Shown: positions 39,806 to 47,004, numbered from the stretch's first letter. The stretch: 64,000 nucleotides of DNA from an uncultured Bacilli bacterium (GCA_949425575.1 CASPVX010000002.1:10309-74308), one strand, 5' to 3'. Program-made: numbers and translations. The notes: generated from the sequence alone by a model not told the origin.

Positions 39806-40030
39806 TTATAAATTATCAAATTTTACTAAAATTACATCTTTTCCAATTTTTTCTATTGATGACCATTTTATTTCATGTTTTTTTCCAATTAAAAAGAAAA
39901 ACTTTCTATTTTGAACAAAAAGTGTTGTTACTTTTCCATTCTCATCTACTTCGGCATCAATAATTGTGCCTATTTTTTTGCCATCAAATGTATTAATGAT
40001 ATCTTTTTCTTGCATTGAGGATAAAAACAT
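39806..40030 (-). CDS. ylmC: YlmC/YmxH-family sporulation protein (PRC-barrel)
   Basis: 74 aa with the pattern L..MQEKDIIN..DGKKIG.I.D.E.D..G.V, located immediately downstream of sigG as in Bacillus. Confidence 0.8.
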   Translation of the reverse strand: MFLSSMQEKDIINTFDGKKIGTIIDAEVDENGKVTTLFVQNRKFFFLIGKKHEIKWSSIEKIGKDVILVKFDNL

Positions 40031-40062: not shown

Positions 40063-40839
40063 TTAAGATATCATTTTCCTAATGTTTTCTAAGCCACTTT
40101 TTTCAAGCCTCGAAATTTGTGCTTGACTAATACCAATTTCTTCAGCTAATTCCATTTGTGTTTTTCCTATCATATATCTTTGAGTTAAAATGTATTTTTC
40201 TTTTTCTTTAAGTTTTTTCATAGCTTCTTTTAATGATATTTTAGTTTCATTATCATATATACTACCATCATTACTTTCTAATTGATCTTCTAGATAAATC
40301 ACATCACCACCGTCGTTATAAATTGGCTCAAACATACTAATAGTATCTTTTAAAGCATTTAATGCAGTGGCAATTTCATATTCGCTTAATTCTAATGCTT
40401 TGCCAATTTCTTCTATAGATGGTTCTTTCCCATTTTTATTTATAAAACTTTCTTTAAATTTTAAAACTTTATATGCTGTATCTTTTATACTTCTAGCTAT
40501 TCTAACACTGTTATTATCTCTTAAATATCTTTTTACTTCTCCTAAAATCATTGGAACTGCATAAGTACTAAATCTTACATCATGAGATAAATCAAAATTT
40601 TCGATAGCTTTTATTAATCCAATACATCCAACCTGAAATAAATCATCCATATTGTCAGTACGGTTATTATATCTTTTTAAAATTGATAAAACTAGCTTTA
40701 GGTTTCCATTTATTAATTCTTCTTTGGCTTCACTATCCCCTTCTTGGTATTTTTTTAGAAGTGTTTTTGTTTCTTCTGGAGTTAAAACTTTAATATTCGC
40801 AGTATTCACGCCACAAATTTCTACTTTATGACGTGCCAT
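40063..40839 (-). CDS. sigG: Forespore sporulation sigma factor SigG
   Basis: KVEICGVNT N-terminus, DDLFQVGCIGLIKAIENFD, FSTYAVPMILGEVKRYLRD, and ISQAQISRLEK. It is collinear with B. subtilis SigG. Confidence 0.9.
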   Translation of the reverse strand: MARHKVEICGVNTANIKVLTPEETKTLLKKYQEGDSEAKEELINGNLKLVLSILKRYNNRTDNMDDLFQVGCIGLIKAIENFDLSHDVRFSTYAVPMILGEVKRYLRDNNSVRIARSIKDTAYKVLKFKESFINKNGKEPSIEEIGKALELSEYEIATALNALKDTISMFEPIYNDGGDVIYLEDQLESNDGSIYDNETKISLKEAMKKLKEKEKYILTQRYMIGKTQMELAEEIGISQAQISRLEKSGLENIRKMIS

Positions 40840-40860
40840 TATTAATTCTCCTTTCTGTTT

Positions 40861-40891
40861 TAATAATGGGAACTAAAATATTTTTTTATAC
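40861..40891 (-). promoter_or_regulatory. Candidate forespore-type (sigma-F/sigma-G) promoter of sigG
   Basis: On the minus strand: GTATA - 18 nt - CATTATTA. This resembles the G(T/C)ATA / CATnnTA forespore promoter consensus and lies directly after the upstream terminator hairpin. Confidence 0.4.
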
Positions 40892-40892
40892 A

Positions 40893-40917
40893 AAAAAACC
40901 ACTAATTTGTGGTTTCT
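40893..40917 (-). terminator. Rho-independent terminator upstream of the sigG promoter
   Basis: On the minus strand: AAACCAC-aaatta-GTGGTTT followed by TTTTT. Confidence 0.7.
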
Positions 40918-41573
40918 GTTATAAATTCTTTAATTTTATTTAATGATGATTCAAACAATTTAATATTATATGGTTCAGTAATTAATAAGTATGTATAGAA
41001 CTCTTTTATTAAGTCAAAATTAATAATATTTTCTTTAATATAACTTTCAAGTATAGAAGATTCTATTTGTTTAATTTTATCAATATATGTTTCATATATT
41101 ATAAGTTCTTCATCATCTAATTTATCTTCTCTACCTTCAGCATGTTTTATTATACTAGCAATTGCCATTACAACAGATTCTAATGTAAAATAATTTGAAG
41201 AAACTAAGTTATCTAATAAAACGTTATATGATTTACCTAATATTTCAATTATTTCTTCACTTGTTTTATCCGCAAAAATACTCACGCTTTTTGGATCGTC
41301 AATAATAATACTATTTATATCAAGATCTGCTTTAATAAAATCAGTTTCTATTATTTCATGATTCATTTCAAGTTCTTCAATTTTGATTTTTTCGTATATT
41401 ACTTTTTTAGTTTTCGATACTGTAACAACAAAATCATTTGTATCTTCTTCGATCATATATGCATTTCTGACCATTGGATAAGCTAAACACATTTTGCCTT
41501 CATAAATCATAAATAATGATGCGGTAGCGTGTTTTGGAATCGCTTTATCAATATTAAGGTCTTCTTTTTTCAT
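40902..41573 (-). CDS. Hypothetical acidic protein
   Basis: The ATG at 41573 follows a GGTGA RBS. No recognisable motif. Confidence 0.5.
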   Translation of the reverse strand: MKKEDLNIDKAIPKHATASLFMIYEGKMCLAYPMVRNAYMIEEDTNDFVVTVSKTKKVIYEKIKIEELEMNHEIIETDFIKADLDINSIIIDDPKSVSIFADKTSEEIIEILGKSYNVLLDNLVSSNYFTLESVVMAIASIIKHAEGREDKLDDEELIIYETYIDKIKQIESSILESYIKENIINFDLIKEFYTYLLITEPYNIKLFESSLNKIKEFITETTN

Positions 41574-41641
41574 CAAAATCACCACATATAATTTACCACA
41601 AAATTGTTTTTTTTTCAATTTTAATAAGAAAAAAAGACATT

Positions 41642-42250
41642 TTATGCCTTTTTTTCATTAAGTAAACTGTATATTAGTAGGATGGATGCTGATAAACTAA
41701 CACCTGCAATAACATCACTAGCAAAATGAACACCTAAATAAATTCTTGTAATTGGTATTAAAATTATTAATAAGCAAAGAACTGTTCCCATTAATATTTT
41801 CTTTTTTTTAGACATTTTAGATTGTAACAAATAGTATAAAAACATACCATAAAATGCAAAGGAAAACATTGCATGAGCACTTGGAAAACTATAACCGATT
41901 TCAGTTATCATCATAATATCTTCTGGCCTTGGACGAGCAATAATAATTTTGACTATTTGATTTATTAAAACTACTAAAAACGCTATTAACAAAATGGTAT
42001 TTCTTTTCTTTTTGTTTTTAATAAAAAGTAAGCATAATACAAGTGCTAGACAAACAAATTCTACTCCTGATAAAGATGTTATTATTTTAAATAAGAATGT
42101 TGTAAATGGTGTATTAATTGTTTGTGACAAATCATATGCATACATATCAAATCTATTTATATATTCTTTGTTTATGCTAAATGCAATAAAAAAGAAAATA
42201 GTTAAAAATACTATAATTCCAGCAATTTTAATTATTTTATTTTTGTTCAT
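41642..42250 (-). CDS. PAP2-family membrane phosphatase
   Basis: KIIIARPRP, SFPSAH and RIYLGVHFASDV, the three PAP2 motifs. The likely start is MNKNKI at 42250. Confidence 0.8.
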   Translation of the reverse strand: MNKNKIIKIAGIIVFLTIFFFIAFSINKEYINRFDMYAYDLSQTINTPFTTFLFKIITSLSGVEFVCLALVLCLLFIKNKKKRNTILLIAFLVVLINQIVKIIIARPRPEDIMMITEIGYSFPSAHAMFSFAFYGMFLYYLLQSKMSKKKKILMGTVLCLLIILIPITRIYLGVHFASDVIAGVSLSASILLIYSLLNEKKA

Positions 42251-43118
42251 TTTGATCCTCTTTTTCTGGTATTTTCTTGATGTGATTTCCAATAATGTCT
42301 GAAATGTCTGATATTGCTACAAATGATGATGTATCGGCATTTTCCACTATTTCTTTTAATCTTGGAACTTCTAATCTAGTTATAACGGTATATAAAATTG
42401 ATTTAGGTGCTTTAGATACTTTTCCTTCACCTTCCCAAATTGTAACTGTTCTTCCTAATTCTTTGAATATCGCATCAGAGATTTTTTCTTTTCGTTCAGT
42501 TATTATAATTGCAGCTTTTGCTTGATTAAATTCATCTGATACAATATCTATTAATTTATATGTTACTACATACATAAGAAGTGAGTATAACGCTCTATCT
42601 GGTCCAAATACAAATATAGCTGAACCATATACAAATATATTAAAGAAGAAGATCATTTGGCCTACTGAAAGTGATGATTTTTTACTAATAACTATAGCTA
42701 CCACTTCAGTACCATCAAGGCAAGCTCCTCCTCTAATTACAAGCCCAACACCTATTCCTAGTAAAAGGCCTCCATAAACTGTTGCAAGTAAAATATCATC
42801 TGTAACCTCTTCTACTGGTTCAAAAACTTCAAGTAAAACGGTAAATACTATAATTGCATACACTGCTTTAACAACGAATCTTTTACCCATGCTCTTATAA
42901 GCTAATATAAAAAACGGAATGTTTAAAATTATAATAAATACACTAACTGGTAATTTAAATAGTTTATTTAAAATAATAGAAATACCAGTAAGACCTCCAT
43001 CAATTATTGAGTTTGGGATTAAAAATATTTCAAGTGCTGCTGCAGCTAGCACTGCACCTATCGTAATTAAAAAAAACGATGGAACTTGTTTAATTATTTT
43101 CATTAATTTTGCTTCCAT
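42237..43118 (-). CDS. YitT-family membrane protein (DUF2179 C-terminal domain)
   Basis: IIDGGLTGISII and GGACLDGTEV motifs, with a C-terminal DUF2179-like ..TVTIWEGEG.. Confidence 0.75.
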   Translation of the reverse strand: MEAKLMKIIKQVPSFFLITIGAVLAAAALEIFLIPNSIIDGGLTGISIILNKLFKLPVSVFIIILNIPFFILAYKSMGKRFVVKAVYAIIVFTVLLEVFEPVEEVTDDILLATVYGGLLLGIGVGLVIRGGACLDGTEVVAIVISKKSSLSVGQMIFFFNIFVYGSAIFVFGPDRALYSLLMYVVTYKLIDIVSDEFNQAKAAIIITERKEKISDAIFKELGRTVTIWEGEGKVSKAPKSILYTVITRLEVPRLKEIVENADTSSFVAISDISDIIGNHIKKIPEKEDQNEQK

Positions 43119-43179
43119 TTTATCACCTGTTTCAATTATATCAAAAAGATTTTTAATTCAAAAGTAAAAAAGTCCATTT

Positions 43180-44280
43180 TTAGGACTCTTTTACGCTATT
43201 TTTCATAATTTCAAGATTATTTTTTAATCTTTCATTATTGGGGTCATAATCTAAAGCTTTTTTTACATAATAAATAGCTTCTGCTTTTCTATCAGTATTA
43301 AAAAGGGAGAGGGATAATATGTCATAGACAGTTCCATCATAGCAAAATGGTTCATTTATATAATTTTTATATGGTTTTTCAAGAGCTAAGGCTATCTCAA
43401 TATTTTTAATTGCTTCTTGATAATTTCCATTTTCATATTCTAATAATGCACTTTCTACAAATGGTTCTCTTAAATAAGGAGTTTCTTTTTTAGCAAGTTC
43501 TAACCACATTTTTGATTCTCTCATTCTATTTAAAGCTTTATATGATCTAGCAATAAAGCGCATAGAAGCAGATCTTTCATCTTTCCATACAGCATTTGGC
43601 ATTTCTAAGTATTTAATAAGTGTATCGATACATTCTTGATATCTTTTATAATACATATATTCTCTACCTAAATAATGCATATTACGATCATCGTCTGGAT
43701 CTTCTTCTACGGACATTTCAAGTAGCGGAAGATATGATCCTCTAGATTTAGAAGAATCGGGATAATGTTTAATAGTAAACTCATCTGTTATTACTGTTAT
43801 TTCATTCCCCTCATATGATAATACTTCATGTACTGGATGAACCCATTTATATCCTTTTTTTACATGGATTTTATCAGCATAAAAGTTTACTGCAGGATTT
43901 CCATATTTATCAAAACTCCAAATATAGTTATATCTAAGTCTAGTTAAAGTCGGATTCCAAATAGACTCTAATTTCTTTCTCCATCCTTTTTCTAAAACTT
44001 CATCAATATCTATACAAAGGCAAATATCTGCATCGTCAGGAACCATATTTAATGATTCATTACGAGCAGTATCAAATCTAAATGGTTTTATATTACCTTT
44101 TTTGACTATTGCTCCTTGTTTTTTTAATTTTTCAATAGTTTTATCTGTTGAACCAGTATCTAATACATAAACTGCATCTGCTTCATTAACACTATTCATC
44201 CACCTATCAACAAATTTTTCCTCATTTTTAGAAATAGCATAAACGTAAACCTTATATTTATTTTTTTCTTTATTAAGCAC
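43180..44280 (-). CDS. Glycosyltransferase (GT2-like N-terminal domain) with C-terminal TPR repeats
   Basis: [14 protein letters not shown]...[10 protein letters not shown] plus a CIDIDE (DxD) motif, with TPR-like helical repeats at the C-terminus. The start overlaps the collagen-like gene's stop by 8 nt. Confidence 0.65.
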
Positions 44281-45502
44281 TTATTTTAGTTACAGTTAAA
44301 CTTGCGTTTGTTCCAGAGCCTAAAGTAACACCAACGGCTATTAAGGCACTAAGAGCCATATCTATGTTTGTTCCTGCTGGTAAGGTTACGATTACACTGC
44401 CACTATAAATAGATTCTACACCAACAGCTAATAATCTAGAAATAACTGCCCCTGGTATATTTGTTCCATTTTGTCTAATAGCTAAAGTAAGTGTTGTTCC
44501 AATAGCTGCTGAAGCATTTAAATACCAATCAATTTTATAAGTCCCTGCTTGAGTAAGGGTTAATGTGTTAGCAGTGGCTGTTGTAATGTTATTTTCAGGC
44601 ATAACAGTTGGTAGTGCTACTTGACTAGTCCCACCCAAAGTTAAATTGATTGTTTGCGGAGCATCACTATATCTACCGCCATAGGCTGCCAAACCTGCAT
44701 TAGGTCCTGTTGGTCCTGTAGCCCCAGTTGGACCGGTTAATCCTTGTATCCCTGATGCACCGGTTGGTCCAGTCGGACCAGTAGGACCTTGAATACCTTG
44801 TGGACCTGTTGGGCCAATTGTTCCAGGAATCCCTTGTATTCCTTGTGGACCAGTAGCTCCAGTAGGCCCTGTCGCACCAATTTCACCAGTTAAACCTTGA
44901 GGTCCAATTGGGCCAGTTGGTCCAGTGACTCCTTGCAATCCCTGAGGCCCTGTCGCACCTGTAGGTCCTGGTACTGTACTAGCCGCACCTGTAGCACCGG
45001 TTGGTCCAGTGGCACCAGTAGGACCTGTTACACCTGCAGCTCCAGTACTACCAGTTGCCCCTGTTGGCCCCTGAATACCTTGTGGGCCAGTTGCGCCAAT
45101 TGGTCCAGTCGGACCGATTGTTCCGGGAATCCCTTGTGTTCCTTGCGGACCAGTAGCTCCAGTAGGGCCTGTTGGTCCTATAGGCCCTGTAGGACCTTGA
45201 ATACCTTGTGGACCTGTGGCTCCCTGGAGTCCTTGCAAACCCCTTGGCCCTTGTGCTCCTGTAGCTCCTGTTGCACCTCTTGGAATCGAAAACTCTAAAA
45301 TAGCATTTTGATTATCTCCAATATTTACAACACTCGCATTTGTTCCAGGTTCTGTAGTATTAGTATCTGCTATAGTGATAGTCGCTGGACCTGCAGGACC
45401 TGTTGGCCCAGTTGGTCCAATTGCAGGACCACAACAGCAAGAAACCGTTTTACATTTTTGATCACGAGCAATTTTTTGCATTGCTTTTTCGTAATTATTC
45501 AT
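44273..45502 (-). CDS. BclA-like collagen triple-helix-repeat spore-surface protein with a C-terminal C1q/TNF-like domain
   Basis: About 63 G-X-Y triplets, mostly [12 protein letters not shown]. The C-terminal ~140 aa is a beta-rich, Thr/Ala/Gly-rich domain as in BclA. The ATG at 45502 lies 6 nt after a GGAGG RBS. Confidence 0.85.
44699..45277 (-). repeat. Collagen-like GXY coding repeat tract, a locally GC-rich island
   Basis: 33 + 30 uninterrupted GXY triplets separated by STVP. The block ATGPQG(I/T)[12 protein letters not shown] occurs twice. Confidence 0.9.
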
Positions 45503-45563
45503 TTCTACCTCCATTCTAATAAATTATATGCAGGAAGTAGATTTACAGCAAAAACAAAAGCAC

Positions 45564-45596
45564 AAAAAAATAAAAAAATATCCATTTTGGATATCA
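45564..45596 (-). terminator. Rho-independent terminator after sigE
   Basis: On the minus strand: ATATCCA-aaa-TGGATAT followed by TTTTTTTATTTTTTT. It overlaps the sigE stop. Confidence 0.75.
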
Positions 45597-46286
45597 GTTG
45601 AAATCTGTCATATTTTTAAGCCTATTTATTACTTTCTTTTCTATTCTGGAAATATAGGATTGACTTATGCCTAATAATTTCGCCACATCTTTTTGCGTTA
45701 ATTCTTCAGTATTAAAAAGGCCATATCTTAAAATCATTATTTGTTTATCTCTAGGACTAAGTTTATTTATTTCTTGGTATAATAAACTTTTTTCTATTTC
45801 TTTTTCTAACCCTTTCGTTACTATATCTGGTTCAGTACCTAAAACATCTTCTAAGTGTAATTCATTACCTTCAGAATCATAGCTTAAATTATCTTCAAAA
45901 CTTATTTCTCCCCTTCTTTTTTTATTTTTTCTTAAAAACATAAGTATTTCATTATCTATACACCTTGAAGCATATGTTGCCAGTTTAATATTTTTATCTA
46001 GTTTATATGTATTAACACCTTTAATTAAGCCTACACTGCCAATACTAACTAAATCTTCTAAATCAATGCCTGTATTTTCATATTTTTTAGACAAAAACAC
46101 TACTAATCTTAAATTGTGTTCGATCAGCTTATCTTTGGCATATTTATCCCCCTCCATTGATTTTAATACATATTTAGTTTCTTCTTCTTTAGAAAGAGGT
46201 CCTGGTAACTTATCAGTACTTCCGATAAAAAAAACGCCTTCTTTTTTAAAAAACACTTCTAATATTTTGTTTAATAGTTTTATCAT
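45594..46286 (-). CDS. sigE: Mother-cell sporulation sigma factor SigE (pro-sigma-E)
   Basis: Pro-sequence, then ..LP.PLSKEEE.., HNLRLVV...KK.ENTGI..EDL.SIG..GLIK, LATYASRCI.NEILM, and ISQSYISRIEK. It lies immediately downstream of spoIIGA (TAA-A-ATG junction). Confidence 0.9.
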   Translation of the reverse strand: MIKLLNKILEVFFKKEGVFFIGSTDKLPGPLSKEEETKYVLKSMEGDKYAKDKLIEHNLRLVVFLSKKYENTGIDLEDLVSIGSVGLIKGVNTYKLDKNIKLATYASRCIDNEILMFLRKNKKRRGEISFEDNLSYDSEGNELHLEDVLGTEPDIVTKGLEKEIEKSLLYQEINKLSPRDKQIMILRYGLFNTEELTQKDVAKLLGISQSYISRIEKKVINRLKNMTDFN

Positions 46287-46287
46287 T

Positions 46288-47004
46288 TTATTCCCCCATT
46301 TTTGCATTTAGTAAAACATTTGCACCATCTATTTCAAAATTATTACTAAAACCAAGCATCACATCCTTATATTCTTTGTCATTAACAACAACTTTATCTG
46401 TTTTTACACATTCCAAAAGTCCATAATTTCCAATTGTATTATAAGGTATATAAATTTTTTTTGATTTGAAATTATTATTAAGATTGGTAATTATAACAGG
46501 GATTTTTTTATAAGTTAGTGTATTACCACTATCTAAAAAACCAATTAAATCTATTGACTTTCCTTCAATATAAACCATTACCTTAAAAAATAATTCTTCT
46601 TTTGTTTTTAATAATTTAGCTTGTCTTATATAAATATATATAATTATTGGTGATAATATGAATAAAAAAACAATTGAATTATAGAAATTTTCTATTTTAA
46701 ATAGATAAAAAACACCCCCTAACATAATATTAATAAAATAAAACGTAATTAAATTAATAAAAGTATATTTTAAATTCTTATAATTGAAAGCAAATAATAC
46801 AATAAGAATACTAAAATAAATTTTTAAAATTATTCTTTGGATCTCACTTATATTTAAAAACAAAATAATTACTGATACACTTCCTATAAAACTGGAAAGA
46901 ATTACATTAAAGAGTTTTATTTTTCTTTTTAAAATCGCTGATGTTGCATATATTATTAAGAAATTAATCCAAAAGTCTAAAATAAATATACTTTCAATAT
47001 ACAT
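46288..47004 (-). CDS. spoIIGA: Sigma-E processing peptidase SpoIIGA
   Basis: Five N-terminal TM segments plus a C-terminal aspartic-protease-like GFLDSGN motif, located upstream of sigE. Confidence 0.85.
   Translation of the reverse strand: MYIESIFILDFWINFLIIYATSAILKRKIKLFNVILSSFIGSVSVIILFLNISEIQRIILKIYFSILIVLFAFNYKNLKYTFINLITFYFINIMLGGVFYLFKIENFYNSIVFLFILSPIIIYIYIRQAKLLKTKEELFFKVMVYIEGKSIDLIGFLDSGNTLTYKKIPVIITNLNNNFKSKKIYIPYNTIGNYGLLECVKTDKVVVNDKEYKDVMLGFSNNFEIDGANVLLNAKMGE

Follow-up and report, generated by a model that had tools for sequence, protein, structure and literature searches.

Why do sigE and sigG, the genes of two sporulation sigma factors, lie 4,754 bp apart in an uncultured gut bacterium? 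In the canonical cluster, sigG stands directly downstream of sigE, with a gap of about 100-200 bp. The locus lies in a 64,000-nucleotide stretch of DNA from an uncultured member of the Bacilli (GCA_949425575.1, CASPVX010000002.1:10309-74308), here called the window; positions are counted from its first letter. The host is a metagenome-assembled genome (MAG) of 1.05 Mb with 27% G+C, and the stretch recurs in many mouse-gut metagenomes. An earlier interpretation, made from the sequence alone, had proposed that a five-gene insertion of about 4.7 kb, carrying a collagen-like spore-surface gene, interrupts a conserved spoIIGA-sigE-sigG cluster. The gene calls bear out the five genes and the distance, from the sigE stop to the sigG start (40840-45593), and Pfam and NCBIfam searches confirm the gene identities that it gave. 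The interval is, however, probably inherited cargo specific to this lineage, located in a chromosomal region whose gene content is fluid across the family, and neither a recent island nor a single functional module. Overall, the locus is a case of ordinary lineage-specific gene order, to which is added a further example of a known glycoprotein/glycosyltransferase pair.

Every gene between 39.8 and 47.0 kb is encoded on the minus strand, in the order spoIIGA, sigE, bclA-like gene, GT2-TPR glycosyltransferase, YitT, PAP2, acidic orphan, and sigG. The first of them, spoIIGA (46288-47004), encodes the pro-sigma-E processing protease (Pfam PF03419 Peptidase_U4, 124.6 bits, E 6e-36; best NCBIfam match TIGR02854). 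Its 3' end is overlapped by sigE (45594-46307), the gene of pro-sigma-E, whose best NCBIfam match is NF006158 SigE (317.6 bits, E 4.6e-95). The collagen-like gene occupies the open reading frame (ORF) 44273-45514 and matches Pfam Collagen and BclA_C. It is followed by the gene of a 366-aa glycosyltransferase (GT; 43180-44280), with the Pfam domains Glycos_transf_2 and TPR_2, and by that of a YitT-family membrane protein with a DUF2179 domain (42237-43118; PF02588, E 1e-69, and PF10035). Next come a PAP2 lipid-phosphate phosphatase, a membrane protein with an isoelectric point (pI) of 9.9 (41642-42292; PF01569, E 4e-21), and an acidic protein of pI 4.6 that belongs to no family (ORF 40902-41618). 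The series ends with sigG (40063-40839), which matches NCBIfam NF006071 SigG with 372.4 bits at a cut-off of 372.

The separation is shared by the genus. In the 24 other species that were sampled first, sigE and sigG are never adjacent, and in all 17 further intervals that have both genes on one contig the gap is 1.4-5.7 kb. ORF mapping found the succession GT-TPR, YitT, PAP2 in most intervals of the genus and subsets of it in others; in three species, GT has been lost from the interval and YitT retained. YitT is kept there across the genus with 56-70% identity. Accessory genes vary from species to species and include arylsulfotransferase, GGDEF, ABC/FtsX, VTT, flavin reductase, and PD-(D/E)XK transposase genes. 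The complete order of the window was also found in two closer relatives outside the species set (L070 and L181), in the latter together with the orphan. The patchy parts of the cargo are bclA and the orphan only: a bclA-like gene directly behind sigE occurs only in the subclade of the window and in one unresolved species, and the orphan was found in none of the 24 other species of the first sample. In a tree of spoIIGA and sigE, the genus forms one clade with a support of 100, and this cargo was found only within it. A GT tree that holds the genus together lies 24.8 log-likelihood units above the free tree and is not rejected by the approximately unbiased (AU) test (p-AU 0.75); according to this test, the two-way split of the genus in the unconstrained GT tree is a search artefact. 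A search of 30 genomes from 26 further genera of the family gave no YitT ortholog at E <= 1e-40, which fits an acquisition at the base of the genus.

Two of the five genes belong to a well-defined pair. The closest characterized counterpart of the GT is SgtA of Clostridioides difficile, a protein of 358 aa with a GT-A domain and four TPR repeats, encoded beside bclA3, which attaches beta-O-linked N-acetylglucosamine from UDP-GlcNAc to threonines of collagen-repeat peptides (PMC7157674). The sequence of the C. difficile SgtA locus was recovered from a metagenome via a published primer. In a BLASTP comparison, the window enzyme is 27% identical to SgtA over 351 aa (E 4e-23), residues 16-355 of 366 aligning with 9-348 of 358, and its DxD-type motif IDIDE falls opposite LDADD of SgtA. 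Glycos_transf_2 covers residues 16-104 and TPR_2 residues 319-349. The window enzyme shares with SgtA the homology over the full length, the combination of GT-A and TPR in about 360 aa, and a bclA-like neighbor. Among NCBIfam models none matched the GT, and among solved structures only generic TPR proteins did. Uncultured gut Bacillota hold many homologues of it, 6,568 matches in total, with 'glycosyltransferase family 2 protein [Bacilli bacterium]' as the single listed name.

The neighborhoods of 80 GT loci were read in species genomes of diverse gut Bacillota. Most of them, roughly 65 as estimated from the map, carry a collagen-like ORF directly 5' of the GT and co-directional with it, and neither YitT nor PAP2 was seen in any of the 80; what is conserved is thus a two-gene unit with bclA first and GT second. 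The sole locus adjoining sigE is that of the window's own genus. On homology and layout, the window pair can be regarded as a distant addition to the glycoprotein/glycosyltransferase pairs of the BclA3/SgtA type. As in sgtA-bclA3 (CD3350-CD3349), which encodes a collagen-like exosporium glycoprotein and the enzyme that attaches O-GlcNAc to it, the genes are adjoining and co-directional, and the partner is rich in GPT and GAT and has a globular C-terminal domain. The two loci differ in gene order, sgtA preceding bclA3 in C. difficile and bclA preceding GT in the window, with an overlap of 8 nt. BclA3 has about 590 aa versus 409 aa in the window protein, sequence identity is low, and the match of the C-terminal domain to Pfam BclA_C distinguishes the window protein from BclA3. 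Finally, the C. difficile pair is known from biochemistry, and the window pair, which belongs to an uncultured, small-genome member of the class Bacilli, from its genes. In the genus, the co-occurrence of GT and collagen genes is suggestive only. BclA_C exceeded its cut-off in just 8 of 41 genomes, so Pfam Collagen, found in 32 of 41, was used as the marker. Most GT-carrying genomes have collagen genes somewhere in the genome, and three of four species with a complete interval that lacks GT have none, these being incomplete MAGs.

The BclA-like protein comprises 409 aa counted from an ATG at 45502. This start is more likely than 45514, with a GGAGG ribosome-binding site (45512-45508) five bases ahead of it. 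From N- to C-terminus, the protein consists of a cysteine-rich segment, a short GPT run, a beta module of about 40 aa, about 64 Gly-X-Y triplets (18 GPT and 12 GAT among them), and a BclA_C head of the C1q/TNF-like type. Pfam Collagen scored 101 bits (E 2.6e-29) and BclA_C 68 bits (cut-off 38, E 9e-19); Gly-X-Y repeats followed by a BclA_C domain make up the BclA-type architecture. The repeats align with C. difficile BclA3 along the repeat region. The collagen-like stalk and C1q/TNF-like BclA_C head are also those of BclA of Bacillus anthracis and B. cereus and of the ENA tip fibrils (L-BclA, F-BclA). In Bacillus BclA-type proteins, the collagen region bears heavy O-glycosylation, and the F-BclA locus includes a nearby glycosyltransferase gene (PMC12357932). 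A Bacillus-type exosporium leader or ENA docking motif was not seen in the window protein, though no search aimed at them was made. The rhamnose-anthrose glycans of Bacillus BclA are made by enzymes other than an SgtA-like GT.

The sequence CATATAATT (45522-45530, minus strand), 28 nt 5' of the bclA start, is a near match to CATAnnnTA, the -10 element common to sigma-E and sigma-K promoters of the mother cell. Of 39 bclA-like genes, 10 have CATAnnnTA at 28-31 nt 5' of the start and 13 have it within 70 nt, compared with 6.9% of control genes from the same loci (Fisher p 3e-6). Together with AC placed 15-18 nt further upstream, it was found at 8 of 39 bclA-like genes and at 1.4% of controls. 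Where loci of the genus lack bclA, the element usually sits in the short spacer between sigE and GT, just 5' of the GT ribosome-binding site. The motifs of the relatives suggest that the window bclA would be expressed in the mother cell. A mother-cell-type promoter element would be a further trait in common with the C. difficile pair; the bclA genes of C. difficile are sigma-K-dependent (PMC3789822).

Across the family, sigE and sigG are frequently apart. They were searched in 200 genomes of the order, representing about 98 genera, and paired by hand; a genome was informative when both genes lay on one contig. Among the matches listed, 35 genomes of other genera were informative: the genes are adjacent (57-179 bp) in 8, separated by 1.0-4.7 kb on the same strand in 17, and at least 7.8 kb apart, reordered or convergent in 10. 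In one genome (G188), sigG is inverted and converges on sigE 1 kb away. Several nearly closed assemblies carry the two genes on separate contigs. In three other families of the class, the genes lie about 100-130 bp apart. The adjacency in these families and in the 8 genomes shows that it is ancestral; within this family, it was lost on many occasions. The cargo did enter the interval relative to this ancestral state, as had been proposed; the premise that the genes are contiguous in this lineage does not hold, contiguity being seen in just 8 of these 35 genomes.

Across the family, the spacer has the look of a hot spot for insertions. The cargo elsewhere is unrelated and includes ABC/FtsX, a PP-loop ATPase, PGI-like, G5, and LRR (LRR_5) proteins, as well as a number of large proteins without a family (L031-L069, L150-L169); GT, YitT, and PAP2 were absent from the sampled intervals of other genera, most of them of the 1-5 kb class. 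It has to be considered that the spacer is a recurrent landing site, which in this genus captured a spore-surface glycosylation enzyme and became a sporulation-timed address where surface-glycoprotein genes diversify, bclA being gained, lost, or swapped. This broader scenario is possible and, on balance, unlikely.

Within the window, the five genes are predicted to fall into separate transcription units. A weak terminator-like hairpin with a U-tract follows sigE (45564-45595, minus strand; hairpin 45595-45577), with 8 A/U-rich pairs, -6.7 kcal/mol, and z -2.26, followed by U7AU7. A strong terminator of sigE's own had been claimed; the hairpin is there, and its strength was overstated. The strongest terminator of the interval, missing from the list of the sequence-only reading, is an intrinsic terminator after GT (43164-43194, minus strand), with a 12-pair stem, -15.6 kcal/mol, and z -6.2. 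A third lies 5' of sigG (40887-40917, minus strand; hairpin 40917-40894, then a U-run), with -11.6 kcal/mol and z -3.9. The 3' end of bclA overlaps the GT start, and YitT, PAP2, and the orphan are closely packed, with overlaps or a 23-nt gap. Given the strong terminator and this packing, the interval reads as at least two predicted units, bclA-GT and YitT-PAP2-orphan, with sigG as a third, and not as one five-gene module. The proposal of a single spore-surface module is further contradicted by the other genomes, where bclA and GT alone travel together. A sigma-70-type promoter match 5' of YitT (43144-43117) was discarded, its -10 box overlapping the ribosome-binding site and start codon of YitT; the alternative TTGAAT - 15 nt - TATAAT is a possible but weak candidate.

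Could the GT, with YitT and PAP2, have become a downstream extension of spoIIG, so that an envelope or glycosylation function is turned on as sporulation begins, its order kept by selection for co-expression? One subclade has sigE and GT 18-56 bp apart, with tight co-directional packing through sigG, and in a sister species with a closed genome (G009), the terminator scan found no terminator-like site anywhere from spoIIGA to sigG. The order also persists though sigE has diverged to 77-83% identity. The scan is, however, insensitive to A/U-rich hairpins, and the window has hairpins after sigE and after GT. Moreover, a GT without bclA usually retains its own CATAnnnTA and ribosome-binding site, which points to separate transcription in the mother cell, and three species of the genus have YitT and no GT in the interval. 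Such a functional capture is rather improbable.

The sequence-only reading had further held that the insertion abolishes read-through from sigE into sigG, with consequences for sigG. The forespore-type (sigma-F/G-like) promoter candidate that it noted behind a terminator of sigG's own stands: directly after the hairpin 5' of sigG comes GTATA (40891-40887), 18 nt, and CATTATTA (40868-40861), the whole candidate spanning 40861-40891 on the minus strand. By eye, most loci of this and other genera show TG[T/A]ATA - 17-18 nt - CA[T/A]TAT[A/G] at the equivalent position 5' of sigG, irrespective of the genes further upstream. These signals predict that sigG is an autonomous unit with its own family-conserved forespore-type promoter, as in Bacillus subtilis. 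Because of the three hairpins, read-through seems unlikely in the window species; the lack of a terminator from spoIIGA to sigG in G009 indicates that the cargo as such does not preclude it. Its loss would matter little for sigG, as B. subtilis does without read-through. The spoIIGA-sigE-sigG region of B. subtilis resembles the window in the overlap of spoIIGA with sigE and in a downstream, co-directional sigG that has a forespore-type promoter of its own and ylmC/ymxH after it; in the window, the latter is a gene of the YlmC/YmxH sporulation family (39806-40030, minus strand) 3' of sigG. It differs in the 4.75 kb and five genes that the window has between sigE and sigG. In B. subtilis, a large hairpin blocks translation of the read-through transcript (PMC5942855). 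This hairpin has no counterpart in the window, where a terminator stands just before the sigG promoter instead.

A horizontally acquired five-gene exosporium or appendage island that recently split the spoIIGA-sigE-sigG operon and rewired sigG control is very improbable. The adjacency of sigE and sigG in three other families means that an insertion happened at some time, no YitT ortholog was found in the 26 other genera, the interval holds three terminator-like hairpins, and the G+C content peaks at 0.56 in the bclA region. This peak (0.49-0.56) is confined to the collagen repeats and results from Gly, Pro, Thr, and Ala codons, not from foreign DNA. The collagen gene has 46.5% G+C, with the excess in the first and second codon positions only; its third-position G+C (GC3) is 0.176, compared with a genome mean of 0.139 (standard deviation 0.030). 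All five genes have GC3 z-scores between 0.0 and +1.4, and the other four genes are within 1.5 standard deviations for G+C, GC3, and synonymous codon choice. Gene calls and Pfam revealed no integrase, repeats, or tRNA flanking the interval. What characterizes a genomic island is absent here: GC3 and codons are host-like, mobility genes are lacking, and the core cargo is genus-wide and follows the host tree. The division into at least two units, the pairing of bclA with GT alone elsewhere, the minority state of contiguity in the family, and the dispensability of read-through in B. subtilis also oppose an island. A recent or foreign insertion is largely refuted by the genus-wide synteny of GT, YitT, and PAP2, and the comparison of composition agrees. 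The same genes throughout the wider clade with no compositional signal had been named beforehand as the finding that would speak against an insertion; it largely applies to GT, YitT, and PAP2, whereas bclA and the orphan are variable. That a chimeric MAG contig was mis-assembled at the collagen repeat, as such repeats do break contigs in the related MAGs G015, G016, G019, and G007, can be dismissed, since other samples, assembled independently, yielded the same order (L070, L181, G010, G018) and 73-95% of the stretch's sampled words were found in 19 public runs from many studies.

The reading as inherited, lineage-specific cargo suggests the following course. The ancestor of the genus would have acquired GT-TPR, YitT, and PAP2 between sigE and sigG, perhaps in a single event. 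Later, the species would have diverged at two places, the slot behind sigE, where bclA is present or absent, and the slot before sigG, which here holds an orphan of a species group. The bclA-GT unit would be led by a mother-cell-type -10 element of the sigma-K or sigma-E class and closed by the strong terminator. The collagen-like protein presumably trimerises via its BclA_C head, and the SgtA-like GT presumably O-glycosylates threonines of the GPT and GAT triplets, probably with N-acetylhexosamine, with the TPR part docking the substrate. Once glycosylated, the protein might be deposited on the outermost spore layer, forming a nap or fibril. The genes from YitT to the orphan would make up a closely packed membrane-protein unit that has no demonstrated tie to sporulation, and sigG would be expressed independently of spoIIG, from its own promoter behind its own terminator.

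Several points weigh against parts of this account. Most of the genomes compared are fragmented MAGs, and the absence of bclA is uncertain in some species, as contigs are often broken at collagen repeats. The hand pairing of sigE and sigG positions covers the matches listed. The window copy CATATAATT departs from CATAnnnTA at the last base, and no AC -35 element was found at the proper spacing ahead of it; the -10 element by itself cannot tell sigma-E from sigma-K. In several sister species, GT starts 18-52 bp past sigE with no terminator between them, and GT may be co-transcribed with spoIIG there. At 27% identity, the donor sugar and acceptor specificity of the GT may differ from those of SgtA.

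For the annotation of uncultured gut Bacilli with small genomes, adjacency of sigE and sigG should not be assumed, and a gap between them is no sign of an island. The picture of sigma-G control is unchanged. To our knowledge, the bclA/SgtA-type pair is known experimentally only from C. difficile; in the present comparison, it emerges as a unit of two genes that is widely conserved among uncultured spore-formers of the gut, with a recognizable mother-cell promoter element. The pair may provide a simple marker to predict spore-surface glycoproteins where transmission depends on spores.

The second half of the interval offers fewer clues to its role. YitT and PAP2 are treated here as a membrane unit unrelated to GT, because they are genus-wide in the interval and yet unlinked to GT elsewhere. 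We know of no established function for YitT/DUF2179 proteins. PAP2 weakly resembles undecaprenyl-diphosphate phosphatases (SepP, below the cut-off) and phosphatidylglycerophosphate phosphatases. It may be speculated that YitT and PAP2 act in the same pathway as GT, e.g., in lipid-linked sugar handling for the spore surface. The acidic orphan matched nothing in Pfam or NCBIfam, and only 10 homologues, each at least 68% identical, were found among 5.8 billion proteins. These indicate a length of 223 aa (40902-41573, minus strand), not 238 aa. An AlphaFold2 model from the 10-sequence alignment has a mean predicted local distance difference test score (pLDDT) of 60, with the N-terminal half below 50 and a C-terminal helical bundle. 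In 16 species of the genus, the slot just 5' of sigG holds a conserved ORF of about 150-180 aa for a multi-pass membrane protein, with 16-21% G+C and a weak match to Yip1 (L040-L047 and others). The end of this ORF falls within the -35 element of the sigG promoter; in the window, its place is taken by the acidic orphan, which is unrelated to it.

Some further observations concern collagen-like genes and GT homologues outside the interval. The source genome has a second collagen-like locus outside the window (contig C12:10882-11852), flanked by def and an ftsW-like gene and made up of short ORFs in tandem. One is a collagen ORF of 72 aa ending in '...ASVTITPST'; the next, of 165 aa, begins IIINTNYLLNFTIPQGPTGP and has a BclA_C head. 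The small beta module, unbroken in the window's BclA, is where the two ORFs are split. Equivalent splits into two or three ORFs were found in three other loci (L073, L074, L100). The split ORFs could encode subunits that complement each other's strands, or they could represent decay. In another genome (G011, locus L039, 2199-4730), a bclA-like gene lies behind sigE on the opposite strand, and an arylsulfotransferase (ASST) takes the place of GT. Jumbo phages of Pseudomonas and an actinobacterial phage encode full-length GT-TPR homologues with 32-41% identity (OQ999401.1, KF147891.1, and others). A phage origin of the GT was considered in view of homologues with 25-48% identity, which are carried by jumbo phages whose hosts are unrelated and by an unannotated contig of faecal origin, but it was rejected, as the window region shows no sign of a prophage. 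Gene calls and Pfam showed no ena, exsF, or bxpB within the 36-50 kb stretch of the window that was read. Upstream of the cluster, a gene for a putative ABC-transporter membrane protein of the CmpB type (PF06541, 47065-47712) separates proS from spoIIGA; in most relatives, spoIIGA directly follows proS.

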